Shown here in pieces: positions 4,136 through 39,097 of a stretch of 64,000 bases of DNA. The stretch lies in the sequence record OQ870555.1. One strand, 5' to 3'. This DNA comes from Escherichia phage PECP14. The translations under genes were made by a program, and so were the position numbers. The number at the start of each line of letters is the position of its first letter. The stretch's first letter is position 1. The notes beneath the pieces were generated by a model, which was not told where the DNA came from, made no database searches, and saw nothing but the letters and a program-made list of their open reading frames with translations.

Positions 4136-4880
4136 CTTTGTGCATAACCTAAATGATAGTGGTTCTCACTTAGTCGATAGTTTCTTATAGTTATTATTTC
4201 TCTTTAATTTATAAGTATATTATATAATATGAAATAGTTAGTTGGCTAATAGGTTTTTAGAGTATTAATAGTCTGCTAACTGTTTCAGCTGTTACAATCC
4301 ACCAGCGTGATTATCCTCCTAGCGATTGTTAGTATGCTAATGGTCTGATACACGTCCAGACTTATTTGTCAATGAAAAATAACAGCAGAAAATACTTTTT
4401 TGAAAAATCAAGTGGATAACTCATTAAATTTCATTTTTGCTTTTTGTATAAGTTATTAACAGGGTCTAAAACGCTCTGTAAGCGATTCTAAGCGCCTCAA
4501 AGGAAAAGCTAGGCAAGTGCATTGCCTACTAGCCGTTATCGCCACTATGAGGATTTTAGATTTTGTCAAGTAGGGCAAAGCAAATATAAATGAAAAAATT
4601 ACTTGCTAAAATGGTTGTTTTGGTGTTATTCGCGCGCCCATTTCATTAAATTTAGTGCGCCGCTGGACGTTTGCGGGTAGTGGTTTTCTTTACGTTTCTT
4701 TACAAAAATACGCTTGCGCCATTTTCGGGAATAACCTATTATTTATCTCGTAGGACGGCGGGACGGAAACGAAACGCAAGATTACACGGCGGGGAAGTTT
4801 ACCGCCATGCTCTTTAAAAACTAGGGAACATCTTAAAGCCTATCGGCGGTAAACTTATATAATATAAGGAATCGACGATA

Positions 4881-5099
4881 ATGATCAAATCAAAAAACGC
4901 TTTAGTGATTAGTGCGAAACCTGCTAGCGCATTAGATAGCAGAACAAAAAATTTGTTGACAGTAGCGCAACGATCTGTAAAATACAGATTCAAGCAATAC
5001 AAGAAAGGTAAGCAGCAAGGTCTGGAAATGGTGTGGCGTAATATAATGATTGATTTATATAACTCCCATCAAATCGAAAAAAGTTTAAAAAACGCTTGA
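4881..5099 (+). CDS. hypothetical small basic protein (72 aa), doubtful
   Basis: ORF bracketed by a 23-bp inverted repeat; contains an internal TTGACA-N16-TAAAAT promoter-like sequence, so it may be non-coding. Confidence 0.25.
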   Translation: MIKSKNALVISAKPASALDSRTKNLLTVAQRSVKYRFKQYKKGKQQGLEMVWRNIMIDLYNSHQIEKSLKNA

Positions 5100-5263
5100 C
5101 ACGCTAGCCGATAGGTTTTAAGATGTTCCCCGTAGTAACTGCTCTTTAAAAATTTGGATAACGGTAATGTTTAGGCTAACTCCTAGCGGATTATAATCTA
5201 ATAGCGTTTCAAAGTATCGAGGCGCTATTGTGGAATAATCCCCAATAAACCGGAGTATTAAAA

Positions 5264-5515
5264 ATGCAAAACGTTATTACCGCGCCGAAAGTAGGTCAAT
5301 CTGTTTTCATTCCTTTTGTAACTAAAACTGATGAATTAACCGGAAAAGCCGAACGTATCAAAGGTGCGGCGCTTGATCCCTTTGATAAGATTGAAGCGGT
5401 CTATGCGGAAACGGAACGCAGTAACAACGGCAAGCCTATTTATAACGTCCGTGTTAAATCTGGCGACGTTGTAAAGGTCATTCAGAAAGATGATAAATGG
5501 CAAGCTATCGCCTAA
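5264..5515 (+). CDS. hypothetical protein (83 aa)
   Basis: ORF preceded by the conserved initiation region ACCGGAGTATTAAAAATG, which recurs at 6200-6218. Confidence 0.5.
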   Translation: MQNVITAPKVGQSVFIPFVTKTDELTGKAERIKGAALDPFDKIEAVYAETERSNNGKPIYNVRVKSGDVVKVIQKDDKWQAIA

Positions 5516-5740
5516 TAGCTTATTAATAACCCGCGCCTTTAATCGGCGTAAATAAATAAGGCTAGCGCCTCATGTTAGATTTTCGATATATTAACCATGT
5601 AGTGTGAACAATGTTATGGCACACAATTTAAACTTATATGATTAGTGTTACTTTTATATTCCCCTGAAATATGGGGAATATATGGATTAACATTAGTTAA
5701 TCATAATCCCTTAATTAATAATTGAATGGAGTATTAAATT

Positions 5741-6157
5741 ATGTCTAACGTTAAAACCGAAAAAACCGCAAAATTCTCTTGGAACGAAGAAAACACTGAA
5801 AAAGCTGTTTCTATGTATTCTGAAATGGTCGCTAAAAGCGGAATTGAATTTGCTAACAGTGACGGCTTGAAAGAAATCGCCGCCGCCGTTGGTGCTGCTA
5901 GTCCGGTGTCTGTACGTTCTAAATTGACCAGTGCAAAAGCCTACCAGAAAAGCGATAAACCGCGTAAAGTTGGCGGCGGGTCTAGTATCCGTAAAGCTCA
6001 CTATGTGCGCGTCATTGCTAAACATGCCATTGATAGCGGCATTGTAAAAGATGCCGATGATCTGGCAAGTCTGGAAAGTGCAAAACTTGAAACGCTGGAC
6101 GCCGTAGCGCAATTGTTAGGCGTAGCGGAGGAAGTAAAACAGGCCGCAGGTGAATAA
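5741..6157 (+). CDS. hypothetical protein (138 aa)
   Basis: ORF with AATGGAG upstream of the start and a terminator hairpin downstream. Confidence 0.55.
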   Translation: MSNVKTEKTAKFSWNEENTEKAVSMYSEMVAKSGIEFANSDGLKEIAAAVGAASPVSVRSKLTSAKAYQKSDKPRKVGGGSSIRKAHYVRVIAKHAIDSGIVKDADDLASLESAKLETLDAVAQLLGVAEEVKQAAGE

Positions 6158-6167
6158 ATTTTAATTA

Positions 6168-6185
6168 GCGGGGAATAATCCCCGC
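6168..6185 (+). terminator. Hairpin GCGGGGA-ATAA-TCCCCGC after gene 5741-6157
   Basis: Identical hairpin to 2762-2779; followed by TATAATTTCCCTTT. Confidence 0.5.
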
Positions 6186-6215
6186 TATAATTTCCCTTTG
6201 ACCGGAGTTATTAAA

Positions 6216-6443
6216 ATGATCTTCTTTCCTAGTGAAGCGTTTATTTTAGGTTTATTTATAGTTGCCGCTATATTTATATTTAATTACGGCAAATATATAA
6301 TCTCTATTATCGGCATTAATTCAGCTTATGCCGCTGATATGTTTAAACGTCAAGCTAATAAACAAAAATATCTAGCGATTATATTTTTAACGCTGGCTAT
6401 CAGTTGCGGTTTTAGTTCTAGTCTTATGCCAATTCTAGAATAA
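6216..6443 (+). CDS. small membrane protein (about 75 aa, two predicted transmembrane helices)
   Basis: Hydrophobic stretches FILGLFIVAAIFIF and LAIIFLTLAISCGF; start taken at the ATG preceded by ACCGGAGTTATTAAA. Confidence 0.5.
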   Translation: MIFFPSEAFILGLFIVAAIFIFNYGKYIISIIGINSAYAADMFKRQANKQKYLAIIFLTLAISCGFSSSLMPILE

Positions 6444-6551
6444 TATTGCAAATTATAACGCCTTTTAAATTGTCCTCACTTCAGGCAAGGCGTTATATTT
6501 GGCAATATTGCCAGTATTAATATTTATCCCTTTATAGGAGTTGATTTAGTT

Positions 6552-8216
6552 ATGAATATTTCCGCAGAAAAACAAGCTCAAATTCTGAAAATGGCCGCAG
6601 ATTTTAACTTCTACGGTAAGCGTTTACGCGCTACTAAATTGGAAGTTTGCGACGATATTTCAAAAGCTGTTTATGATACGCCGAAACATTCGACCGCAAT
6701 TTGTGACTGGTTAGAAGCAAATAAGCCAGCGAAACCGAAAGCGGCAAAAGCTGAAAAGGCGATTAAAAATGATGATCGCCCCGAAGCGGCGGGAATTGTT
6801 TCTAGTACCGTTGAACAATGGGAAGTTAAATCCGGTCGCCGTTTTATTCTAACGTCGATTCAAAATAATACTTTCCCGCATAAAAACTTTTTAGCAAGTC
6901 TGGAAAAATTCGCTGAATATTGCGGCGCTGAATTGCTGATTAGTAAATTCATTTATAATAAAAATGGATTCCAGAACGGGGAAGGGGCAAACGGTATTAA
7001 ATACGATCCCGCATTTGATAAATATGTTTGTGATAAAAACGTATTTTTAAATAATCGCCGCTTTGCTTTCATGGCTGAAATTAACGTTTTACCAACGGCA
7101 GATTATCCGCTTTCAGGATTCGCAGAAACCGCCACGGCTTTAAATATCGAAGGTCTGGCAATTGGTCACGCTAAAATCACCGCTGAAAGTGTGCCAGCGT
7201 TAAAAGGTGAAGTCGTGCGCCGTATGTATTCAACCGGAACGGCGACACTAAAAAACTATATCCAGCAAAAGGCGGGACAAAAAGCCGAGGCTTTACATAA
7301 TTTCGGCGCTTTGCTGGTAGAGTTTGACGACGACGGAGAATTTTATTGCCGCCAGCTTGAAACAATGGACGAAAGCGGAATGTTCTACGATTTGAACGTG
7401 TGCGCTACCGCTACCGGATGTTATGAAACATCGGGCCATGTTCTAGGCTTGCAATATGGCGATATTCACGCCGAAAAACTAGATGATGATTGCGCCGTCG
7501 CTTCATGGGCTAGTGAAAACAGCTTGCTTGATATTCTTAAACCGAAATATCAATTTATTCATGATGTGCATGATTTTACATCCCGCAATCACCATAACCG
7601 CGCAAGTGGTGTATTCCTTGCTAAACAGTACGCCGCAGGACGTGATAAAGTTATTGATGATTTGATTGATACCGGTCGCGTGTTGGAATCTATGGAGCGT
7701 GATTTCTCTCAAACAATCATTGTGGAATCTAACCATGATTTAGCTCTTTCACGCTGGCTAGATGATCGTAACGCTAACATTAAGGACGATCCCGCAAACG
7801 CGGAACTGTATCACCGTCTAAACGCTGCGATTTACGCCGCTATTGCTGAAAAGGATGATACCTTTAACGTGCTAGATTACGCCTTGCGGAACGTCGCAGG
7901 ATGCGAATTTAACGCCATTTTCTTGACTACTGACCAGTCATTTAAAATCGCTGGCATTGAATGCGGCGTACATGGTCACAACGGCATTAACGGCAGTCGG
8001 GGCAATCCTAAGCAGTTTAAAAAGTTGGGACGCCTTAACACTGGTCATACTCATACGGCTAGCATTTACGGCGGCGTTTATACCGCTGGCGTGGCGGGGT
8101 CGCTTGATATGGGCTACAACGTGGGCGCGTCAAGCTGGACGCAAACGCATTTAATTACCTATGCAAACGGTCAAAGAACATTGATTGACTTTAAGAATGG
8201 TAAATTCTTTGCATAA
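6552..8216 (+). CDS. A1: A1-like pre-early protein, calcineurin-type metallophosphoesterase (554 aa)
   Basis: Phosphoesterase motifs GDIHAE and ESNHDL in the translation; size and position next to A2-like and dmp genes match my recollection of T5 A1 (about 556 aa). Confidence 0.8.
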   Translation: MNISAEKQAQILKMAADFNFYGKRLRATKLEVCDDISKAVYDTPKHSTAICDWLEANKPAKPKAAKAEKAIKNDDRPEAAGIVSSTVEQWEVKSGRRFILTSIQNNTFPHKNFLASLEKFAEYCGAELLISKFIYNKNGFQNGEGANGIKYDPAFDKYVCDKNVFLNNRRFAFMAEINVLPTADYPLSGFAETATALNIEGLAIGHAKITAESVPALKGEVVRRMYSTGTATLKNYIQQKAGQKAEALHNFGALLVEFDDDGEFYCRQLETMDESGMFYDLNVCATATGCYETSGHVLGLQYGDIHAEKLDDDCAVASWASENSLLDILKPKYQFIHDVHDFTSRNHHNRASGVFLAKQYAAGRDKVIDDLIDTGRVLESMERDFSQTIIVESNHDLALSRWLDDRNANIKDDPANAELYHRLNAAIYAAIAEKDDTFNVLDYALRNVAGCEFNAIFLTTDQSFKIAGIECGVHGHNGINGSRGNPKQFKKLGRLNTGHTHTASIYGGVYTAGVAGSLDMGYNVGASSWTQTHLITYANGQRTLIDFKNGKFFA

Positions 8217-8268
8217 TTAAATTTAATCGGCGGTTGAAATATACCGCCATTAATAAAAGGTTTATTAA

Positions 8269-8526
8269 ATGAATATTGTATTACCTAAAACACTGGATAA
8301 AAAGCAGTATATAACGCCGGATGATATGGAATGCGGCAAGGTATACCAATTCGATTATATGTTGGCTAGTCCGACGAATACAGGTTGTATTATTGCAGTT
8401 GATACCCGTGATAATGACGTATTAACGTTTAATGATTATTCTGACTTTATGGAATGGTTAGATGATCAAAGTATTACTAATAACGGCGAATTAACGCCGT
8501 ATCAATTAACAATTGCAATTAAATAA
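8269..8526 (+). CDS. hypothetical protein (85 aa)
   Basis: ORF between the A1 and A2-like genes. Confidence 0.45.
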   Translation: MNIVLPKTLDKKQYITPDDMECGKVYQFDYMLASPTNTGCIIAVDTRDNDVLTFNDYSDFMEWLDDQSITNNGELTPYQLTIAIK

Positions 8527-8562
8527 ATTAATCCCGTAATTAAATAATCTGGAGTCATAAAC

Positions 8563-8955
8563 ATGAAACAACAAAATATTCCTTTTGATCGCGCTACTTC
8601 TTCCATCGTTCTAGTTTATTCTAATGGCGAACGTTATCACGTCGAGGCGGGGCAAGTTAATTTAGATTTGCTGAATTATAACGACGCTTTGCAGGTTACT
8701 ACCTTTGCTTATGATACCGGCAAAGTGGCAAGCCATACAAAAGCAAAAGGCGTTTACGCTGATACTTTGACAGTGCAAACAATTATTATTGATGCGCTTA
8801 AATCCGGTCTAGCGTTTGCAGTTGTTAAGCCGTGTCCGGTCTGCCATCCCGAAGCTAGCGCGATGGTTTACACTTGCGCGGGGATTCGCTCTAGTGTACA
8901 TGGTGAAGATCTTAGCTTTATCGCCGATGCTCTCGCTTTTGGTCTGGCGTTCTAA
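8563..8955 (+). CDS. A2-like pre-early protein (130 aa)
   Basis: Size and position after A1 are consistent with T5 A2 (about 14-15 kDa); assigned by synteny only. Confidence 0.5.
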   Translation: MKQQNIPFDRATSSIVLVYSNGERYHVEAGQVNLDLLNYNDALQVTTFAYDTGKVASHTKAKGVYADTLTVQTIIIDALKSGLAFAVVKPCPVCHPEASAMVYTCAGIRSSVHGEDLSFIADALAFGLAF

Positions 8956-8978
8956 TAGTTAATTGAACATTGCCAGCT

Positions 8979-9009
8979 AATCTAATATAATTAGCTGGCA
9001 AGATTGAAT
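8979..9009. other. Perfect 11-bp stem hairpin TGCCAGCTAAT-N7-ATTAGCTGGCA between A2-like gene and dmp
   Basis: Read directly; no T-run follows, so it may be a processing or regulatory structure rather than a terminator. Confidence 0.5.
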
Positions 9010-9042
9010 TAACCTAAATCCCTTAAATGGAGAATGTAACAA

Positions 9043-9777
9043 ATGAATCAAGTCAACATGAATATTACCCGCACTTTCCCGCATATTTCCCGCGTTATGA
9101 TTTGGGATTTAGACGGAACGATTATAAATTCTTTCCATCGTGTAGCGCCTTGCTTTGACGATAACGGGAATTTAGATTTAGTTAAGTATTCCCGCGAAGC
9201 CTGCAAACATGAATTAATTATGCAGGATTCCTTATTACCATTGGTTGAATATATGCGCCAATGTATGAATGATCCCAATACCTTAAACCTTATTTGTACC
9301 GCTCGCTTAATGGGTAAATCTGATTATTATTTCTTGCGTAAACAAAGTCTAAGAGGGCGCGGAAATAGTAATATTCGCGTATTTTCCCGCGATACATTAC
9401 ATAAATACTTTGATGCAAATAAGGTTAGCGAAATATACCACAGTAAAGACGCTGTATATAAATCTTATTACTTTGAACTGTTTAAACAGCTATACCCTAA
9501 CGCTGATTTTACGATGATTGATGATCATAAAGGTGTATTATCGGCGGCGGCAAGTGCTGGATTTAAAACGCTGGACGCTCAAGCCGTTAATGATATCCTA
9601 TCAATCGGGGTAACATTGATCGGTGAAACCTTTATTGATGAATCGTTAGATGATGATAACGATTATCAATTCCTAGCCGAACGTTTAAAAATGTGTTGGG
9701 AAGGTATGACCGAGGAAGAACGCGCGGAATATAGTACCACACCGCAACAATTCATTGATAAATTAAAAGTTGCCTAA
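9043..9777 (+). CDS. dmp: 5'-deoxyribonucleotidase, HAD superfamily (244 aa)
   Basis: HAD motif I (IWDLDGTII) near the N-terminus; length matches my recollection of T5 Dmp. Confidence 0.75.
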   Translation: MNQVNMNITRTFPHISRVMIWDLDGTIINSFHRVAPCFDDNGNLDLVKYSREACKHELIMQDSLLPLVEYMRQCMNDPNTLNLICTARLMGKSDYYFLRKQSLRGRGNSNIRVFSRDTLHKYFDANKVSEIYHSKDAVYKSYYFELFKQLYPNADFTMIDDHKGVLSAAASAGFKTLDAQAVNDILSIGVTLIGETFIDESLDDDNDYQFLAERLKMCWEGMTEEERAEYSTTPQQFIDKLKVA

Positions 9778-9795
9778 CAATTAAAAATAAAATAG

Positions 9796-9830
9796 TCACG
9801 GTGTGTAACGATAACATGCCGTGACTATTA
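9796..9830 (-). terminator. Rho-independent terminator (stem TAGTCACGG / CCGTGACTA, then TTTTATTTTT on minus strand)
   Basis: 9-bp stem plus T-run; closes the leftward small-gene operon and lies just after the dmp stop. Confidence 0.55.
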
Positions 9831-9935
9831 GCTTGCTAAGTACCGGGGCGGTAATGAGACTCATTCTCATCTAGGGAACCTCTGGGCACACCTTCATGTG
9901 TAATCTTAGGAGATTTGGCAAAAGTCAAATTAGCG

Positions 9936-11308: not shown

Positions 11309-13090
11309 ATGAGTTTTTTCGCAGGAAAATTTAGTGATGGTAAAACTGTATTATCTCTAAACGCTGCTAATGGTGGTGATATAAATCAGCACTACTCTCC
11401 AAATACTAATAGTATCTTCCACTCAGATATGCCCTTCGTCCTAGTTGATGGGACTTATGAGGCTGCCCTAGGTGATGCAGGTAATGGGTACTTTGTTACT
11501 CAGATGCCTTGGGATATTATAAACATTAAATCCAATGATCCTGGTAGAGTTATATTAACTGCTATTGAGATAAATGGTACTCATAGGGGTTTCCTTAATG
11601 GTACACAATCTCAGGTTGGCCAGTTCTTATCATTCTTTGAAGACCAACCACGTGCTGGTGCTGAACTGGCTATAACATCTGCTTTTGCAATCGGTGATAG
11701 TTTAGCTCACGGTACTTATATATATAATGGTGGTCTTGGTCATGAGGAATCTATTGCTAGGCAAGGAACTGGTGGTACTTTACTACAATCTTCCGGTTTC
11801 CAGATCTTTAGACCTGGTGGTGTTTCCGCAGGTGAAGCTATTTCCAGAGCCTGGGGATTAATGGGCTTTCCTACTGGTGTTTCTACTGTTCCTATAGATG
11901 GTGGTAACGCCGATTATTGGGAACCTAACTGGCAAGCGCCTGTTGGTTCTGCTGGTAGAGGCCATGATTGGTTTTATGTTTGTAATTCTAATATTCGTGG
12001 CTTCGCAGGTAAGAAAGGTGTACTACCAGATAACGTAAACGTTCTTTACCAATCTCCTGCATATCCAGAAAAAATATATGTTTGTAGAGGTTCTACTTCT
12101 AATATGGCTGCTCAGTCTGCTAGAAAGGTATATGTACAGGACTGGTATAACGTTACGCCAACTAAGGTTATTTGGTATGTGCTAAATCTGCGCTATTCTA
12201 ATGGTAGTATGGGGGTTTCTGGTAATCCATTTACCGGTTCAGATATCCTAATATCTCCATCTAACTTTACTATTAAAGGTGTTAGCCTACCAAATACAGG
12301 CTATAAATTTATTAACCAGAATGCTTTCGGAAACTTAGGCTATCGCCCTGATATGGAGTATGTTGGTAATAACGCCGCGTATACCGGAGTTTTTGGTGAT
12401 AATACTGCACGATGTGAATTTATTGGCTCTAGTAACGGTGGGTTGTGGTCACCCGTTAACTATGGGGGTGCAGCTTCTCAAATTAGCCTATATAAATTTG
12501 GTGTAGGTAAACAATGGTATGTAGATACTAATACCAACTCCATTGGTAATGAACATGGACCTGTCTGGAGTCCTAGTACTGTACCCCTCAGGTTATTCCC
12601 AGGCAACGTTGCAAGTACTTATGTAGGGGATGATATAACTCCATCCTACCCTGGTGCTGGTGACTTCTACACACCTTTGGCCACAGTTTGGTTGGGATTA
12701 CCAAATGCTCACTCTACTGTTATATTAACTACTGAAGTTATTATGGGTAATCTTAATACTGCTGGAATGCCTGTGCGTACTTATGGTGGTAGTGCTTGGC
12801 AGGTACAAGGTAGACGTCAACAAAGTTATACAGCTGGTGATGGTGTATTCCATCAGATTCTTACTCTGCCACCTGGCTATCTAGTACCTTATCACAGTAC
12901 AACTTCCTATAGTTATACACAAACTTGGGCTAGTAGGCCAGATGAGTTTGCTTTCCGTAGGAACGGATATATTTATACTATTAAAAACCTTGGTAATGGC
13001 AACGTTGAGTTGGGTGTTATCATTCACGCTGCAGAAGCGGCAGCTGTTTTCTTGCCAAGACTACGTGTAACAGTTCAACGCCTAACCTAA
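11309..13090 (+). CDS. receptor-binding tail protein (pb5-like, 593 aa)
   Basis: Large Gly/Asn/Thr-rich protein divergent from llp and just upstream of the terminase genes; assigned by synteny. Receptor specificity cannot be read from sequence. Confidence 0.7.
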
Positions 13091-33570: not shown

Positions 33571-33993
33571 ATGAGTACAGAAAACCGAGTTATTGATATT
33601 GTTGTTGATGAAAAAGTACCTTATGGTCTTATCATGCAATTTATGGATGTTGATGATAGTGTATATCCACCAACAGAAGTTCCTGTTAACTTGACGGGGT
33701 ATTCTCTCCGAGGGACTATTAAGTCTAGTTTAGATGAGAACGCCGAGGTTCTAGCTAATTTTAAAGCTCGTGTTATTGATGCTGCTCAAGGTGCTGCTGC
33801 AATTAGTCTTTCTGTTGCAGACGTTACAAATATTGGTGAAAAAGCATCTAAAGAACGTGATAAGTACAACCCAAGACAACGTTTTGCAGGTTATTATGAT
33901 ATCCTAATGACTCGTGATGTGATTGGCTCTGAAGTCAGTTCTTTCCGTATTATGGAAGGTAAAGTATACATCAGCGATGGAGTAACTCAATAA
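33571..33993 (+). CDS. tail collar protein (p132-like, 140 aa)
   Basis: Small protein immediately upstream of the tail-fibre gene; size matches T5 p132. Confidence 0.5.
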
Positions 33994-36900
33994 TGGCACT
34001 TAAAACTAAAATTATTGTACAGCAGATTCTGAACATAGATGACACTACAACTACTGCTAGTAAGTATCCTAAATATACAGTAGTTTTAGGTAATTCTATT
34101 AGTTCTATTACTGCTGGTGAATTAACTGCTGCTGTAGAAGCCTCTGCTGCTTCTGCTGCGGCAGCAAAAGATTCTGAAATAGCAGCTAAGGAATCTGAAA
34201 CAAATGCTAAGGACTCGGAGAACCTAGCTGCAATTTATGCTACTTCTTCTGAAACATCTGCAACTCAATCTGCGGCATCTGCCGCGGAAGCTGAGAGACA
34301 AGCTGGTCTGTCACAAAAGAGTGCTGAAGCATCCGCTACATCGGCGGAAGAATCTAAAGGATTCAGGAATTCTGCTGAATTAGCTGCTCAAAATGCGGAG
34401 ACCAGTCGTAGACTTGCCGAACAAGCTAAAACTGCGGCTCAACAAGCTCAGACAGCTGCAGAAACTGCTAAGACTGGTGCTGAAACAGCAAAAGCAGGTG
34501 CAGAAGCTGCTGCTACAACTGCTGGAGAACATGCTGCTTCCGCTAAACAATCAGAATTAAATGCTAAAGAATCAGAAACTAATGCGGCTGGTTCTGCTGT
34601 AGAAGCAGGAGATAAGGCTGTAGATGCTACTACTGAGGCAAATCGTGCTAAGGCTGAAGCCGATCGCGCAGCTCAGATTGTAGATAGCAAGCTGGATAAA
34701 GAAGATATATCTGGTTTCATCAAAGTTTATAAGACAAAAGCAGAAGCTGATGCAGATGTTGCAAATCGTGTTCTGGGTGAAAAGATTCTAGTCTGGAACC
34801 AAACTGATTCAAAATATGGTTGGTATAAGGTTGCTGGTACTGCTGAGGCTCCTGTCCTAGAATTAGTAGAAATTGAACAGAAACTCGTATCAATCAATAA
34901 CGTTCATGCAGATGATGCTGGTAACGTACAGATCACTCTTCCAGGAGGTAACCCTTCTTTATGGTTAGGTGAAGTTACTTGGTTCCCTTACGATAAAGAT
35001 TCGGGTGTTGGATACCCTGGTGTTCTGCCAGCTGATGGTCGTGAAGTACTTCGTGTTGACTATCCTGATACTTGGGAAGCCATCGAAGCTGGTCTAATTC
35101 CTTCTGTTTCAGAAGCTGAATGGCAGGCCGGTGCAACTCTCTACTTCTCCACTGGTGATGGTTCCACAACCTTCCGTTTACCAGATATGATGCAAGGGCA
35201 GGCTTTTCGTGCACCTACTAAGGGAGAAGAAGACGGCGGTGCTATTAAGGAACAGATTCCTTATATCACTACTGTGAATGGAATTGGTCCTGCTGATGAT
35301 ACTGGAGCTATTAAGCTTCCTTACGTGGCAATGGTCAATGGAACTATTCGTCCAGATGAGAACGGAAATCTAGCACTAGGTAACGTAGTAACCAAAAACG
35401 TTTGGAACGGTACTGATGGAGAAGTCTTACTAAGGGGTGCATTTGGTTTAGGTGGTGCTGGTATAATTCTTAATGAACCAGATCTAGTATCCTTCTTTAA
35501 AGCAATGCGTGCTTTCGGTTCAGGGTATTATAGAAATGATAACGAGAGTAACTTAGTAATCCCTAAGTATTCTGCTGGATTCTACTCTAAAGTTGGAGAT
35601 ACCCATACCTTTATTTGTTCTGCCTATAGCAATGGTGTTGCTTTTGTAGCTTCTGCTTCTGATAGAGATTTAGATGAAGAATCTACAGTACATACTAATA
35701 TTCTTTATGGTACTGCAAATAAGCCTGATTTAAATAATGATACTCAAGGTGTCTTAGGTCTCGATAAAGGAGGAACAGGAGCTTCTACAGTTAGTTCTGC
35801 CAAAACTAACCTAGAAGTGGATAGAATAAAGCAGCTAGTAGGAGGAACACATATAACCTCTCAGGATCAAAATATAGTGTTTATGGTTCAGGACACTAAA
35901 ACCTGGGGGGTATACGACCATTCTGAAAACAAGTGGATATCTTTACCTGTTGAACATGGGGGTACTGGAGCTACTGAGCCAGTTCAAGCTAGAAAAAATT
36001 TAGGGGCTGCAAGTGCCGGTATTAACTCCGATATTACTCAGCTACGTAATATGGAGGGTTGGCCTCTTAGCATTAAGAACGGTGGTATTATTACTCGTAA
36101 ATACCACGCAGTTCCTTCGGATGGGTTTTACTTAGGATCGGAAGTTTTTTCTGCTCAGGTCCAACTGGATAATTCAGAGGATCCAGATACCCCTCGTTTA
36201 GAGGCATTATTTTACGCTGAAGGTAACTATGCCCAATCTCGTACTGAAAGGGCTACAGTAGCTGCTTATAGGCGTACTGCAGATGGTTCGTTAACTGCTA
36301 CTAAATATGCTAACCTGTACATGGATTCAGGGGCTTGGAATGCAGAACGTATGCAAGCTCTAGGGTATTCTAAAGGTTGGGACGATGATTCCTTTGGTTT
36401 CCTCGCTCCTTTTCAAGCTTCTGATGTAACGGGCAATGATCATGGATTCGTACCTATTATTAGTGCTATGACTCAATCCACAGGTGGCTACCCAATGAGG
36501 GCTACTACTGGATTAATATCTCGAGGTACTAGTACTTGGCCTGCCTATGCATTTAGACTTCGTGGAGATTCTAATTGGGGATGTACCTATCAGTTCCACA
36601 TGACAGGGGATATTGACGGATGGGGGTCAGACTATAATAACGTTGTCTTTAACTTTACTTACACAAAAAATGCGGTGTCGGATATCAATCTAAAAGATAA
36701 TATTCAAGACGTATCGGGTGAAGAATCTCTTGAAAACATTGAAAAAATGGAGTTCAAGAAATTCACCTATAAGTTTGATAAGAAAAAGAGTATTAGACGT
36801 GGTGTTATTGCACAACAAATAGAGTTGATTGATCCTCAATATGTTAAAGCTATTGGCAATCCTGAAACCGACGATATTACTTTAACCCTAGATACCAATC

Positions 36901-37076
36901 CATTGTTAATGGATGCTTTAGCTGCTATTAAGGTATTATCTGAAAGAAATAAGTCTCTTGAGACTAAACTACAAGAGATGTCTACTGTTATTGAAAACAT
37001 TAACGAAAAGCTTAATTTGATGACTAGATTATCAAATATAGAAGCAGAGTTAGATAAAATGAAAGGTACTAGTTAA
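33993..37076 (+). CDS. L-shaped tail fibre protein A with C-terminal intramolecular chaperone (auto-cleaving) domain (1027 aa)
   Basis: N-terminal Ala/Glu/Ser-rich repetitive helical region; C-terminal about 130 aa (SDINLKDNIQDVSGEE...GVIAQQIELIDPQYV...) fits the peptidase-S74-type chaperone pattern. Confidence 0.8.
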   Translation: MALKTKIIVQQILNIDDTTTTASKYPKYTVVLGNSISSITAGELTAAVEASAASAAAAKDSEIAAKESETNAKDSENLAAIYATSSETSATQSAASAAEAERQAGLSQKSAEASATSAEESKGFRNSAELAAQNAETSRRLAEQAKTAAQQAQTAAETAKTGAETAKAGAEAAATTAGEHAASAKQSELNAKESETNAAGSAVEAGDKAVDATTEANRAKAEADRAAQIVDSKLDKEDISGFIKVYKTKAEADADVANRVLGEKILVWNQTDSKYGWYKVAGTAEAPVLELVEIEQKLVSINNVHADDAGNVQITLPGGNPSLWLGEVTWFPYDKDSGVGYPGVLPADGREVLRVDYPDTWEAIEAGLIPSVSEAEWQAGATLYFSTGDGSTTFRLPDMMQGQAFRAPTKGEEDGGAIKEQIPYITTVNGIGPADDTGAIKLPYVAMVNGTIRPDENGNLALGNVVTKNVWNGTDGEVLLRGAFGLGGAGIILNEPDLVSFFKAMRAFGSGYYRNDNESNLVIPKYSAGFYSKVGDTHTFICSAYSNGVAFVASASDRDLDEESTVHTNILYGTANKPDLNNDTQGVLGLDKGGTGASTVSSAKTNLEVDRIKQLVGGTHITSQDQNIVFMVQDTKTWGVYDHSENKWISLPVEHGGTGATEPVQARKNLGAASAGINSDITQLRNMEGWPLSIKNGGIITRKYHAVPSDGFYLGSEVFSAQVQLDNSEDPDTPRLEALFYAEGNYAQSRTERATVAAYRRTADGSLTATKYANLYMDSGAWNAERMQALGYSKGWDDDSFGFLAPFQASDVTGNDHGFVPIISAMTQSTGGYPMRATTGLISRGTSTWPAYAFRLRGDSNWGCTYQFHMTGDIDGWGSDYNNVVFNFTYTKNAVSDINLKDNIQDVSGEESLENIEKMEFKKFTYKFDKKKSIRRGVIAQQIELIDPQYVKAIGNPETDDITLTLDTNPLLMDALAAIKVLSERNKSLETKLQEMSTVIENINEKLNLMTRLSNIEAELDKMKGTS

Positions 37077-39061
37077 TGTCACGTAATTTAATGCCAAAAA
37101 GTGGGGCTATGGCCCCATATGTTGTAGTTAATAGAGACGCCGCAGTTGCCGGCGTTTTCTCTGTTGATGGAGAAGCTGGTGCTGTTGTGCTAACTTCCAA
37201 ATACCTGCAAATCTCTAAGTATACTACTGATAAAGCTGCTACTGATGCAGCTATCAATAATATTAACGAGTCGATTGGTAATATTAATACTGCATTAGGA
37301 GGTGTTAATACTACTTTAGATACTAAAGCTGCTAAAGGTGCCAATAACGATATTACAGAATTAAATGCACTTACTAAAGCTATTAAAATTTCTCAAGGTG
37401 GTACTGGGGCAGTAACGCTAGAAAATGCTAGAGCAAATCTACAAGTAGAACGCCTACGTCAGCAAGATAACGGAACTTTTATTACCTCTCCTGACGGTAA
37501 ATATTCTTTATTTATCTATAATAGTGGAGATTTTGGTTTAATTAATAGTGCTAGTACAGCAGTTAGTGCTATGAAAGTTGCTTTCGGTGGTACGGGTGGA
37601 ACTACTCCTAAAACTGCAAGAAAAGGCCTTAATGTCCCTGTTGGTGCCTTGGCTGAGATAGTACCTGATGGAGATAACGTATTGAACTATGTAGCTGTTG
37701 CTGGCCAGAGTGGGTATTATTCCTCTGGTGACGCAATAGTTAACGGGCCTCCCAAGCAAGAGGGTTGGTGGACGTATAACTTCCACTGTCATGGAGTAGA
37801 CATAAATGGTGTGGCACAATACGGTATACTTCGTGCAGTTGGATTGTCTGGTAGTTCCTGGGTTAACGTTCTTGATGGTACTGATAACTGGAGAGGATGG
37901 CAGGAACAATTTAATGTTCAAACTACTGTTCAAATCTCTAATGGGGGTACTGGTGCTCAGAGTGTAGGACAAGCAAGAAGTAATCTTGGAATTGGTGAAA
38001 CTGATATTCCTGTTTTTAGGGGTGTGAATCTTATTGAAAAGAATGGTGCTAATTCCGGCATTCTTTACCTAATAAACAAGAACGCAGAAGGTGTGCAACT
38101 TTCATATTCCAGGATCTACAATGAAATTCAAGGAGCGACCGCTAAAGCAACAATACAAGTAACAAGAGAAGGTGGTGATAATAACTATTATCAATTTGAC
38201 GAGCATGGTAATGCACTAAACTATAACTCTATAACAGTAGGTCGTGGTATTGGTAACGCTCTTGGTGATAATTCATTGGTTATTGGTGATACTGACACTG
38301 GCTTTAAATGGGGTGGTGATGGTATTATTCAAATTCATTGCAATGGTAGTAATATTGCATCTTATGAAGCGCACAATATGCATATTAATGGATTACTTAC
38401 AATATGGCCTACTGAGAATAACGCAAATGGGGTTAGAGTTTCAGGCGCTAGAACTGGTGGCGGTAATGCGTTAATTGGGGGTCAAATTGCTGGCGGCGGC
38501 TGGGATGGTTGGCGAGATCGCGCATCTGGTCTACTTGTTGAACTACCAGGTGATGATGCCGCATCAAACATATTCAAGGCTGTTAGGTGGGGCGGTGATT
38601 GGGCTGCTGGTCTTGATGTTGTAAGATATGGTGCTGGAGGTTGTGAGGCGCACCTTAATATAAGAGGTGCAACTTACACATTTAATGATGCTGGGTATGC
38701 GTCTGCTGTTCAGTGGGTTAACACATCCGATATTCGCCTGAAAGCAAATCTAAAAGAGATTGAAAGCGCTAAAGAAAAAGTGAAATCGATTAAGGGTTAT
38801 ACTTATTTTAAGCGTAATAATCTTGATGAAGATGAACACTCTATTTATTCTGAGGAAGCGGGTGTAATAGCTCAGGATGTGCAGGCTGTTTTGCCGGAGG
38901 CTGTTTATAAAATCTCTAACAGTGAGTATTTAGGTGTAAGTTATAGTGGTATTACCGCTCTCCTAGTTAACGCTTTTAATGAACTTAATGAAGTTGTTGA
39001 AAAGCAGCAGCAAGAAATTGATGAACTTAAGAAATTGGTAAAACAATTACTTGATAAGTAA
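37076..39061 (+). CDS. L-shaped tail fibre protein B with C-terminal intramolecular chaperone domain (661 aa)
   Basis: Gly-rich body; C-terminal SDIRLKANLKEIESAKEK...GVIAQDVQAVLPEAVYK chaperone-type domain paralogous to the C-terminus of the preceding gene. Confidence 0.75.
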   Translation: MSRNLMPKSGAMAPYVVVNRDAAVAGVFSVDGEAGAVVLTSKYLQISKYTTDKAATDAAINNINESIGNINTALGGVNTTLDTKAAKGANNDITELNALTKAIKISQGGTGAVTLENARANLQVERLRQQDNGTFITSPDGKYSLFIYNSGDFGLINSASTAVSAMKVAFGGTGGTTPKTARKGLNVPVGALAEIVPDGDNVLNYVAVAGQSGYYSSGDAIVNGPPKQEGWWTYNFHCHGVDINGVAQYGILRAVGLSGSSWVNVLDGTDNWRGWQEQFNVQTTVQISNGGTGAQSVGQARSNLGIGETDIPVFRGVNLIEKNGANSGILYLINKNAEGVQLSYSRIYNEIQGATAKATIQVTREGGDNNYYQFDEHGNALNYNSITVGRGIGNALGDNSLVIGDTDTGFKWGGDGIIQIHCNGSNIASYEAHNMHINGLLTIWPTENNANGVRVSGARTGGGNALIGGQIAGGGWDGWRDRASGLLVELPGDDAASNIFKAVRWGGDWAAGLDVVRYGAGGCEAHLNIRGATYTFNDAGYASAVQWVNTSDIRLKANLKEIESAKEKVKSIKGYTYFKRNNLDEDEHSIYSEEAGVIAQDVQAVLPEAVYKISNSEYLGVSYSGITALLVNAFNELNEVVEKQQQEIDELKKLVKQLLDK

Positions 39062-39068
39062 AAGAAAA

Positions 39069-39090
39069 CCCCAGTGGATTTCCACTGGGG
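39069..39090. terminator. Bidirectional terminator CCCCAGTGGA-TT-TCCACTGGGG between convergent late and early units
   Basis: Perfect 10-bp stem flanked by A-run upstream and TTTATTATTAT downstream. Confidence 0.8.
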
Positions 39091-39097
39091 TTTATTA

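Follow-up and report, generated by a model that had tools for sequence, protein, structure and literature searches.

The question raised by this locus is whether two tail fibre genes lying in tandem in a T5-like genome encode one fibre that is branched and has two receptor-binding specificities, as the original prediction had proposed. The window, the whole stretch of 64,000 nucleotides that was analysed, is by its sequence that of a T5-like phage of Salmonella (Epseptimavirus), and the fibre locus shares 99% identity with deposited, annotated Epseptimavirus genomes such as that of STK8t. Both genes were recovered exactly where they had been placed, at 33993-37076 (ORF1, ltfA, 1027 aa) and 37076-39061 (ORF2, ltfB, 661 aa) of the + strand, each specifying a protein with a C-terminal Peptidase_S74 domain, and T5 does carry, as had been stated, one ltf gene, which is followed by a terminator. 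The report of such fibres in T5 relatives, to which the prediction alluded, is that of Golomidova et al. 2016 (PMC4728585) on DT57C and DT571/2. Positions 33571-39061 probably represent an ltfC-ltfA-ltfB late operon encoding a two-protein lateral (L-shaped) tail fibre of the DT57C type, a reading to which we assign a probability of about 85%. The two-protein LtfA/LtfB fibre has been known since the 2016 description of DT57C, about 150 sequenced relatives carry the pair, and the feature is an ordinary one.

Gene order, attachment and shaft

The operon begins with ltfC (33571..33993, + strand, like the coding features that follow), specifying a collar protein of 140 aa that serves to attach the L-shaped fibre (PF23926 LtfC, E 8.6e-16), which is 94% identical to DT57C LtfC across all 140 aa. 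It lies directly upstream of ltfA, to which it is joined by a TAATG overlap, and the start of ltfB overlaps the ltfA stop codon in the same way (TAATG), whereas the ltfA and ltfB genes of DT57C are 38 nt apart. LtfA, with a predicted mature form of aa 1-895, matched phrog_5481 (tail fiber, E 0) and the DT57C LtfA structure (PDB 8hqz_d, E 2.5e-251), with 85% identity over aa 1-458, which span the attachment strands, the coiled coil and a gp14-like region. LtfB, with a predicted mature form of aa 1-550, matched phrog_12321 (tail fiber, E 1.1e-275). Immediately downstream is a bidirectional intrinsic terminator (39066..39093; 12-bp stem with 7 GC pairs, T-runs on both strands), closing the late tail fibre operon and a convergent dut operon, and a bidirectional terminator is annotated at the equivalent position in the T5 record.

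The N-terminal strands of LtfA (aa 1-39, 33993..34109) were identified as the tail attachment by homology to DT57C LtfA, and identity over aa 1-80 was 95% to DT57C LtfA, 96% to Eps7 and 67-72% to T5 pb1. In the cryo-EM study of DT57C (Ayala et al. 2023, PMC10713586, PDB 8HQZ), these strands fit into the LtfC/TTMP groove, LtfC forms a dodecameric ring, and the LtfA helix begins at T40. By homology, the LtfA chains would form a trimer, with the strands of aa 1-39 threading the groove beneath a dodecameric LtfC collar. The Ala/Glu/Ser-rich N-terminal shaft that had been noticed in the first protein was borne out at aa 40-232 (34110..34688), where Ala, Glu and Ser make up 33%, 13% and 11% of the 193 residues, the heptad register is unbroken, and the 3.5-residue periodicity of Ala is pronounced (z = 13.4; 0/1000 shuffles). 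Its DNA contains three 21-nt tandem arrays, and the region is 84% identical to DT57C. This alanine-heptad coiled coil, presumably trimeric, would project outward from the tail tip.

Proposed docking domain and adaptor peptide

The next region of LtfA (aa 233-458, 34689..35366) is homologous to phiEco32 gp14 (45% identity) and SU10 gp12 (44%), as well as to DT57C (84%), and matched PDB 7z47_D (E 1.4e-45); a PF07484 Collar match here was sub-threshold (20.4 bits, cut-off 24). The equivalent gp14-like region of DT57C LtfA (approximately aa 223-471) was proposed as the docking site for LtfB in PMC4728585. The likely counterpart is the N-terminal adaptor peptide of LtfB (aa 1-49, 37076..37222), with identities of 94% to DT57C LtfB, 96% to DT571/2 LtfB, and 71% to each of phiEco32 gp15 (over aa 1-45) and SU10 gp13. 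All seven of the two-gene T5-like loci that were examined (DT57C, STK8t, S124, oldekolle, 118970_sal2, GEC_N3 and Kp150049) contained both socket and adaptor, as did the kuraviruses phiEco32 and SU10; the single-fibre loci of T5 and Eps7 contained neither. Among database records, 154 contained the docking domain (at least 60% identity) and 147 the LtfB N-terminus (at least 80%). LtfA aa 233-458 may thus act as a socket that takes the first 49 or so residues of an LtfB trimer, which would then stand out as a side branch held on the virion through LtfA. Even in DT57C, cryo-EM did not resolve a contact between the two proteins, and the density ascribed to LtfB was weak (PMC10713586).

DT57C and DT571/2 have the same gene order, ltfC-ltfA-ltfB, and both of their fibre proteins end in S74 domains, but the two distal modules found here are different cassettes, and E. 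coli is their host where that of the present phage is Salmonella. Repeats shared by ltfA and ltfB cause ltfA-ltfB fusions in DT57C (PMC4728585); no long DNA repeats common to the two genes were found at the present locus. T5 pb1 (Ltf) shares the N-terminal attachment region and the coiled coil (51% identity, aa 5-230), a C-terminal S74 domain with SDxxLK, and a matching genome position before the bidirectional terminator, but it is one protein of 1396 aa, lacking the gp14-like docking domain and any ltfB partner. No alignment to pb1 extended past its residue 534, and the receptor-binding regions are not alignable. A single fibre of the pb1 type was rejected, as there are two genes here, pb1 has no socket, and the pb1 receptor-binding domain was not matched. 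The kuravirus pairs (phiEco32 gp14/gp15; SU10 gp12/gp13, PDB 7Z47) have in common the socket (44-45%), the adaptor (71%), and adjacent genes in the same order, but kuraviruses are podoviruses, the fibre of which attaches to the portal adaptor and not to an LtfC collar. No S74 match was found in SU10 gp12. A long fibre of the gp14/gp15 type was also rejected, since LtfA has an S74 domain of its own and a T5-type, LtfC-binding N-terminus.

Chaperone domains and distal modules

Hallmarks of self-cleaving chaperones had been claimed for both C-termini, and each was found to contain PF13884 (Peptidase_S74) together with a Ser/Lys dyad. The S74 intramolecular chaperone of LtfA occupies aa 896-1027 (36678..37073; PF13884 at aa 896-951, 47.1 bits, E 3e-12) and that of LtfB aa 551-661 (38726..39058; PF13884 at aa 551-611, 54.6 bits, E 1.3e-14), both scoring above the Pfam gathering cut-off of 22 bits. 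The predicted length of about 130 aa held for LtfA (132 aa, Ser to stop) but was a slight overestimate for LtfB (111 aa). The dyads are intact in LtfA (SDINLKDNI, S896/K901) and LtfB (SDIRLKANL, S551/K556), and align with that of T5 pb1 (SDARLKNDV, S1264/K1269), which adjoins the annotated end of the mature peptide in the T5 record; when T5 pb1, DT57C LtfA and LtfB, SU10 gp13 and phiEco32 gp15 were aligned with the two proteins, the dyad columns (S-D-x-x-x-K) showed no variation. A structural model of the LtfA chaperone (pLDDT 82-96) matched MyRF ICA (7dc3) in a Foldseek search (E 5.5e-5, prob 1.0, TMt 0.57-0.61) and, more weakly, 3gw6. The fold search with the LtfB chaperone gave no significant match, while at the sequence level LtfB aa 550-658 matched the chaperone part of S16 gp37 (PDB 6f45_A, whole-chain E 3e-21). 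PF13884, the dyad and a C-terminal helix are shared with endosialidase K1F CIMCD (3GW6), MyRF ICA (7DC3) and S16 gp37 (6F45). Unlike in endosialidase K1F, the passengers in LtfA and LtfB are putative fibre tips, and a Pfam search detected no catalytic glycosidase domain in either protein. By analogy, each chaperone would assist the folding of its distal module and then be released through autoproteolysis by the Ser/Lys dyad, at S896 in LtfA and at S551 in LtfB.

Between adaptor and tip, LtfB has a proximal shaft (aa 50-295, 37223..37960) in which the GGTGx..AR.NL motif occurs three times (at aa 108, 171 and 290) and which shows 50% identity to DT57C LtfB with half its length covered; LtfB aa 79-185 share 33% identity with aa 564-670 of LtfA, and the LtfA distal module itself contains two GGTGA..AR.NL motifs (aa 593 and 656). 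That module (aa 459-895, 35367..36677), putative receptor-binding region 1, had no detectable homology to the distal part of DT57C LtfA, reached an identity of 80% or more in only 14 of the 490 records that matched, and was about 40% identical to fibres of T7-like Shigella phages carrying PF03906. The LtfA tip resembles fibres of T7-like podoviruses with genomes of about 39 kb. The LtfB module (aa 296-550, 37961..38725), putative receptor-binding region 2, had no detectable homology to DT57C LtfB, but showed 78% identity to the fibre of Escherichia phage SRT8 (49.6 kb), and 44% to part of the single Ltf of Eps7, and locally matched the tip of S16 gp37 (PDB 6f45_A). For the LtfB tip, the resemblance is to the T-even gp37 tip and to the fibres of siphoviruses of about 50 kb, SRT8 among them.

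The two distal modules are unrelated, the only match between them (E 3e-4, 22% identity) lying mostly within the chaperone. Relatives swap them independently of one another, whereas the parts for attachment and docking are conserved: in Klebsiella phage 150049 the LtfA module has been replaced and LtfB kept, while in 118970_sal2 LtfA is kept at 98-100% and the LtfB module is only 63% identical. Independent exchange of unrelated modules is what two specificities predict, and it fits a different receptor specificity at each tip. AlphaFold models of the monomers showed no fold that could be interpreted in either putative receptor-binding module, so glycan binding is inferred from context only.

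Alternative arrangements and receptor binding

Every sequence-defined feature of the DT57C system is present at the locus, which supports the branched, two-specificity fibre. Docking, self-cleavage, incorporation of the two proteins into virions and the type of receptor are carried over from work on DT57C, T5 and phiEco32, and by that analogy the fibre of the present phage would be physically branched and processed in the same way. An unbranched fibre, in which LtfB is joined to LtfA end-to-end or at an elbow and alone touches the receptor, appears unlikely. It follows the description given by the SU10 authors, for whom the homologous gp12 and gp13 make up the proximal and the distal part of a 700-Angstrom fibre that has a single elbow and is not branched, and the present locus shares its docking domain and adaptor peptide with SU10 and phiEco32. 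However, LtfA continues for 437 residues past the docking domain and, in contrast to SU10 gp12, ends in its own S74 domain, the hallmark of a free folded tip; exchanging the C-terminal region of LtfA changes the host range of DT57C and DT571/2 (PMC4728585), and the independent exchange of the LtfA module among relatives likewise speaks against a serial arrangement.

It is very unlikely that LtfB forms a second, independent fibre attached directly to the tail tip (via LtfC, pb3 or pb4). Its N-terminus is unlike any T5 tail protein or the LtfA attachment peptide, matching instead kuravirus gp15, and in the loci examined was found only alongside the gp14-like domain of LtfA; moreover, mutants in ltfA no longer grow on either host (PMC4728585). 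Weak densities by the DT57C tail tip were tentatively given to LtfB, but no robust LtfB density was seen on the tail core, and the weak density was read as folded-back C-terminal ends (PMC10713586). A role for ORF2 as merely an assembly factor or chaperone for ORF1, rather than a receptor-binding virion component, can be considered very improbable, as ORF2 specifies a complete fibre architecture with its own predicted self-cleaving chaperone, and a distal module homologous to the fibres of other phages (SRT8, 78%) and to the distal part of the only fibre of Eps7. Proteomics of phage phiR2-01 found both fibre proteins, and the ltfB mutation of DT571/2 ended growth specifically on the O81-type host (PMC4728585). 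The same opal mutant was without any visible LTFs (PMC4728585), which indicates that LtfB aids fibre assembly or stability. The loss of all LTFs suggests that LtfB is both a receptor-binding branch and required for fibre stability, and these roles do not exclude each other.

In the branched fibre, the two tips would each bind reversibly to a different surface glycan, O-antigens being the most likely, allowing passage through the O-antigen layer and then irreversible binding by the pb5-type terminal receptor-binding protein (593 aa, 11309..13090, + strand; phrog_4815, E 4.8e-284). The latter matched T5 pb5 (PDB 8a8c/8b14, E 1e-46) in its C-terminal half only, and was 98.5% identical to the RBP of EscoHU1, a phage described as BtuB-dependent (PMC12887010), and 98.7% to that of BSP22A; by homology it would be of the BtuB type and act after the fibres in adsorption. 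In a less probable reading, LtfB could bend back towards the tail tip and serve there as a conditional sensor, an idea put forward speculatively for DT57C, and the conserved LtfC, LtfA (1-458) and LtfB (1-49) could constitute a natural plug-and-play scaffold for cassettes from other phage groups, possibly giving an unusual dual specificity; if so, the pair could target two Salmonella O-serogroups, or an O-antigen together with a non-O-antigen glycan.

The fibre locus and its genomic setting

The tail fibre locus of PECP14 belongs, by its sequence, to the DT57C-type LtfA/LtfB/LtfC system, a two-protein, branched, L-shaped tail fibre, and all five of the sequence-defined features of that system were found. 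The two tandem ORFs of the original prediction proved exact in their coordinates and real, far beyond chance: ltfA (33993-37076, plus strand) specifies 1027 aa, and ltfB (37076-39061, plus strand) specifies 661 aa. A 140-aa ORF, the collar gene ltfC (33571-33993), directly precedes ltfA. At both the ltfC/ltfA and ltfA/ltfB junctions the stop codon shares a base with the next ATG (TAATG), overlaps that argue for co-translation rather than an internal promoter. Sigma-70-like sites, sought as signs of a promoter between the genes, showed no enrichment (27 found, 34.6 expected). A perfect 12 bp, GC-rich hairpin with T-runs on each strand (39066-39093, both strands) sits 3' of ltfB, facing a convergent 88-aa ORF and the dUTPase (dut) operon, and its position is that of an annotated 'efficient bidirectional rho-independent terminator' in the T5 record.

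The ORFs upstream of the locus are homologues of pb3 and pb4, with four PB4 Pfam domains (E values down to 5e-199). The 5.07-kb locus matched 324 phage records, mostly Salmonella and Escherichia T5-like phages, and was 99.0-99.4% identical in Salmonella phages STK8t and vB_SalS_KFSSM and in the 'Campylobacter phage A148' record, and 98% identical in UTK0010. GenBank thus holds nearly the same sequence at 99% identity, labelled as tail fibre proteins. STK8t (Demerecviridae, Markadamsvirinae, Epseptimavirus) is annotated with the same gene order of distal tail protein, pb3, pb4, collar protein and two tail fibre proteins, followed on the other strand by dut, exonuclease and further genes. ARAGORN detected no tRNA genes in the entire 64-kb window, and a 554-aa 'DNA transfer protein' (phrog_1745) is encoded at 6552-8216; the window therefore appears to start at a genome end, and we infer that it runs from there through the late structural genes to the replication genes. 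Two records carrying a T5-like enterobacterial fibre locus bear unexpected host names, MG065642.1 ('Campylobacter phage A148', 113 kb, 99.4% identical to the window locus) and PQ773600.1 ('Corynebacterium phage CPphiVTCCBPA_418', 41 kb), and these labels look like contamination or mis-assignment.

Module structure of LtfA and LtfB

Residues 1-458 of LtfA are 85% identical to DT57C LtfA (PDB 8HQZ chain d, E 2.5e-251). The attachment segment (aa 1-39) was assigned from the DT57C cryo-EM structure (PMC10713586), where the first ~39 residues are beta-strands augmenting the sheets of a dodecameric LtfC ring, and a long helix from T40 forms a trimeric coiled coil. The following shaft (aa 40-232) had been described as Ala/Glu/Ser-rich, and its composition (33% Ala, 13% Glu, 11% Ser), unbroken heptad register and 3.5-residue Ala periodicity (z = 13.4) identify it as an alanine-heptad coiled coil. 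It is common to T5 pb1, which is 51% identical to LtfA over aa 5-230. The shaft DNA carries three short arrays of 21-nt (7-codon) tandem repeats (34161-34585), and slippage in these could change shaft length; the oldekolle record has repeat_regions annotated at the corresponding place. Next comes the socket (aa 233-458), which shares 84% identity with DT57C LtfA and 44-45% with phiEco32 gp14 and SU10 gp12 (PDB 7z47_D, E 1.4e-45). This gp14-like region was proposed as the LtfB docking site by Golomidova et al. (PMC4728585); the Pfam Collar domain scored below threshold within it. Homology to DT57C LtfA stops at residue 458, and the distal module (aa 459-895) is a different cassette: of 490 phage records that match it, only 14 reach 80% identity. 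Beyond the T5-like phages, the fibres closest to it belong to T7-like Shigella phages of ~39 kb (about 40% identity) and have a PF03906 N-terminus.

LtfB begins with a short adaptor (aa 1-49) that found no Pfam family but is 94% identical to DT57C LtfB and 96% to DT571/2 LtfB; phiEco32 gp15 and SU10 gp13 have N-termini 71% identical to it. The proximal shaft (aa 50-295) carries three copies of a recurrent motif, GGTG[AG]-x7-9-A[RK]-x-[NG]L, at aa 108, 171 and 290 (37397-37470, 37586-37660 and 37943-38015), and LtfA has two, at aa 593 and 656 (35769-35840 and 35958-36030). Copies are spaced ~63 aa apart, and LtfA aa 564-670 and LtfB aa 79-185, which span a motif pair, are 33% identical. The motif also occurs in DT57C LtfA and LtfB, four times in phiEco32 gp14 and twice in SU10 gp12; it was not found in T5 pb1, and these modules matched no Pfam family. 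The distal module of LtfB (aa 296-550) has no homology to DT57C LtfB, shares 78% identity with the fibre of Escherichia phage SRT8 (49.6 kb) and 35-46% with prophage fibres of enterobacteria, and has a homologue in the distal part of Eps7's only Ltf. A T-even gp37/gp38-type tip was considered for LtfB, given a short local match to the S16 gp37 tip (PDB 6f45) at aa 394-433, but was not adopted.

Both proteins end in an intramolecular chaperone domain, as originally predicted, with Peptidase_S74 (PF13884, 'chaperone of endosialidase') matches that clearly exceed the gathering score, at aa 896-951 of LtfA (domain aa 896-1027) and aa 551-611 of LtfB (domain aa 551-661; SDIRLKANL, S551/K556). The LtfA motif SDINLKDNI aligns with SDARLKNDV of T5 pb1 (S1264/K1269), the position at which the mature pb1 peptide ends in the T5 GenBank record. 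The LtfB chaperone matched that of S16 gp37 (whole-chain E 3e-21).

Models of the distal halves were built on alignments of 23-24 sequences. In the AlphaFold model of LtfA aa 640-1027 the chaperone (pLDDT 82-96) was the only confident part; it resembles the MyRF ICA domain (7dc3, E 5.5e-5, probability 1.0), with a weaker match to the chaperone of an endosialidase (3gw6), and was the only part of the model that Foldseek matched in the PDB. The monomer model of LtfB aa 296-661 (mean pLDDT 72.6) gave nothing significant in the same search (best 6f45, E 0.065). The receptor-binding parts were poorly modelled (pLDDT 30-65 in LtfA, 50-80 in LtfB), and neither a fold nor an enzymatic activity could be assigned to either tip from these models.

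Proposed attachment of LtfB to LtfA

Were LtfB docked on the gp14-like domain of LtfA, socket and adaptor would be expected to occur together or not at all. Local tblastn searches found both in DT57C, STK8t, S124, oldekolle, 118970_sal2, GEC_vB_N3 and Klebsiella phage 150049, as well as in phiEco32 and SU10, while the single-fibre phages T5 and Eps7 lack both and retain LtfC, the attachment N-terminus and the coiled coil. Among 50,697 phage records, the docking domain (≥60% identity) occurred in 154, the LtfB N-terminus (≥80% identity) in 147, and the attachment N-terminus of LtfA/Ltf in 529. About 30% of records with the attachment N-terminus are thus of the two-gene type, and socket and adaptor travel together. 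Kuraviruses formed a second band in both the docking-domain and the LtfB N-terminus searches. No solved socket-adaptor joint was found; the SU10 entries (7z47) hold the gp12 chain only, and the remainder of the fibre beyond gp12 was not resolved in the SU10 paper. The phage vB_SalS-SIY1lw is described as lacking LtfB (PMC12887010), whereas its genome (PP105779.1) encodes 49 aa 100% identical to the LtfB N-terminus (37815-37961) and a docking domain with 97.6% identity (35118-35741).

It is conceivable that LtfA and LtfB are successive segments of one fibre, since the authors of the SU10 study call the homologous pair proximal and distal segments of a single elbowed fibre. However, LtfA has 437 residues and its own chaperone past the socket, SU10 gp12 gave no S74 match, and the genetics of DT57C also argue against a serial arrangement, which is ranked low; together these points favour a branch. 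Two other readings, that ORF2 is purely a chaperone or is attached to the tail independently of LtfA, fit poorly and are likewise ranked low. Proteomics has confirmed both fibre proteins of phiR2-01, a phage with a docking domain 78% identical to the LtfA socket. A T5 pb1-type single fibre was rejected, as the locus has two genes, with a socket and adaptor that T5 lacks, and so was a kuravirus fibre, even though that pair is common to kuraviruses and PECP14. The original finding of a two-gene, probably branched fibre is therefore correct but already known; the arrangement was published in 2016 (PMC4728585) and 2023 (PMC10713586) and is mentioned in several genome papers, those on BF23 and phiR2-01 among them.

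Tip exchange, adsorption and applications

Outside the chaperone, the distal modules of LtfA and LtfB are unrelated (best alignment 22% identity, E 3e-4). Module-by-module comparison showed LtfC, LtfA aa 1-458 and LtfB aa 1-49 to be 84-100% identical across all phages of the two-gene type, whereas the distal modules have been swapped independently. In Klebsiella phage 150049 LtfB is retained (98-100%), but the LtfA chaperone and tip are different, the tip with 70% identity over 35% of the module; 118970_sal2 keeps LtfA (98-100%) with a divergent LtfB tip (63%); both tips differ in S124 and GEC_vB_N3; and in oldekolle the LtfA tip has diverged (66%) and that of LtfB is largely replaced. Tips that determine host range independently of each other would be expected to show such a pattern. 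Direct evidence for tip specificities comes from DT57C and DT571/2 only (PMC4728585): the C-terminal region of LtfA sets O22-like versus O87 specificity, an O81-type host requires LtfB, and ltfA mutation abolishes growth on both hosts. An ltfB opal mutant was without L-shaped fibres by electron microscopy, so LtfB also stabilises the fibre. In DT57C, DNA repeats shared by ltfA and ltfB lead to gene fusions; in PECP14 none was longer than 32 nt at 72% identity, and such instability is not expected here.

Two related records have irregular fibre annotations. In Eps7 (CP000917, locus positions 7001-9918) the ltf CDS is annotated to end at 9424, and homology to the LtfB distal module and S74 chaperone runs on in other frames to about 9918, which suggests that a frameshift or sequencing error cuts the annotated fibre before its chaperone domain. 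The 118970_sal2 record (NC_031933, locus positions 4584-6567) splits ltfB into two CDS that overlap (4584-5471 and 5422-6567), so that 'three' fibre genes are annotated, probably through a frameshift in the record and not a third fibre.

A terminal receptor-binding protein of the pb5 type is encoded at 11309-13090. It shares 98.5% identity with its counterpart in EscoHU1, described as BtuB-dependent (PMC12887010), and 98.7% with that of BSP22A, and matches T5 pb5 in the C-terminal half only (E 1e-46), which suggests a receptor of the BtuB rather than the FhuA type. The two fibre tips would likely bind glycan reversibly first, after which, by homology, pb5 likely binds BtuB irreversibly.

While nothing new emerges on the workings of phages, the present analysis contributes exact module boundaries, the two predicted cleavage sites, a test of co-occurrence and the comparison of independent exchange. 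Its practical use lies in annotation, as the genes can be named ltfA and ltfB and cleavage predicted at S896 and S551, and in engineering, as the borders between conserved and swappable parts (in LtfA after aa 458, in LtfB around aa 50-295) are sharp enough to guide changes to the host range of Salmonella T5-like phages.
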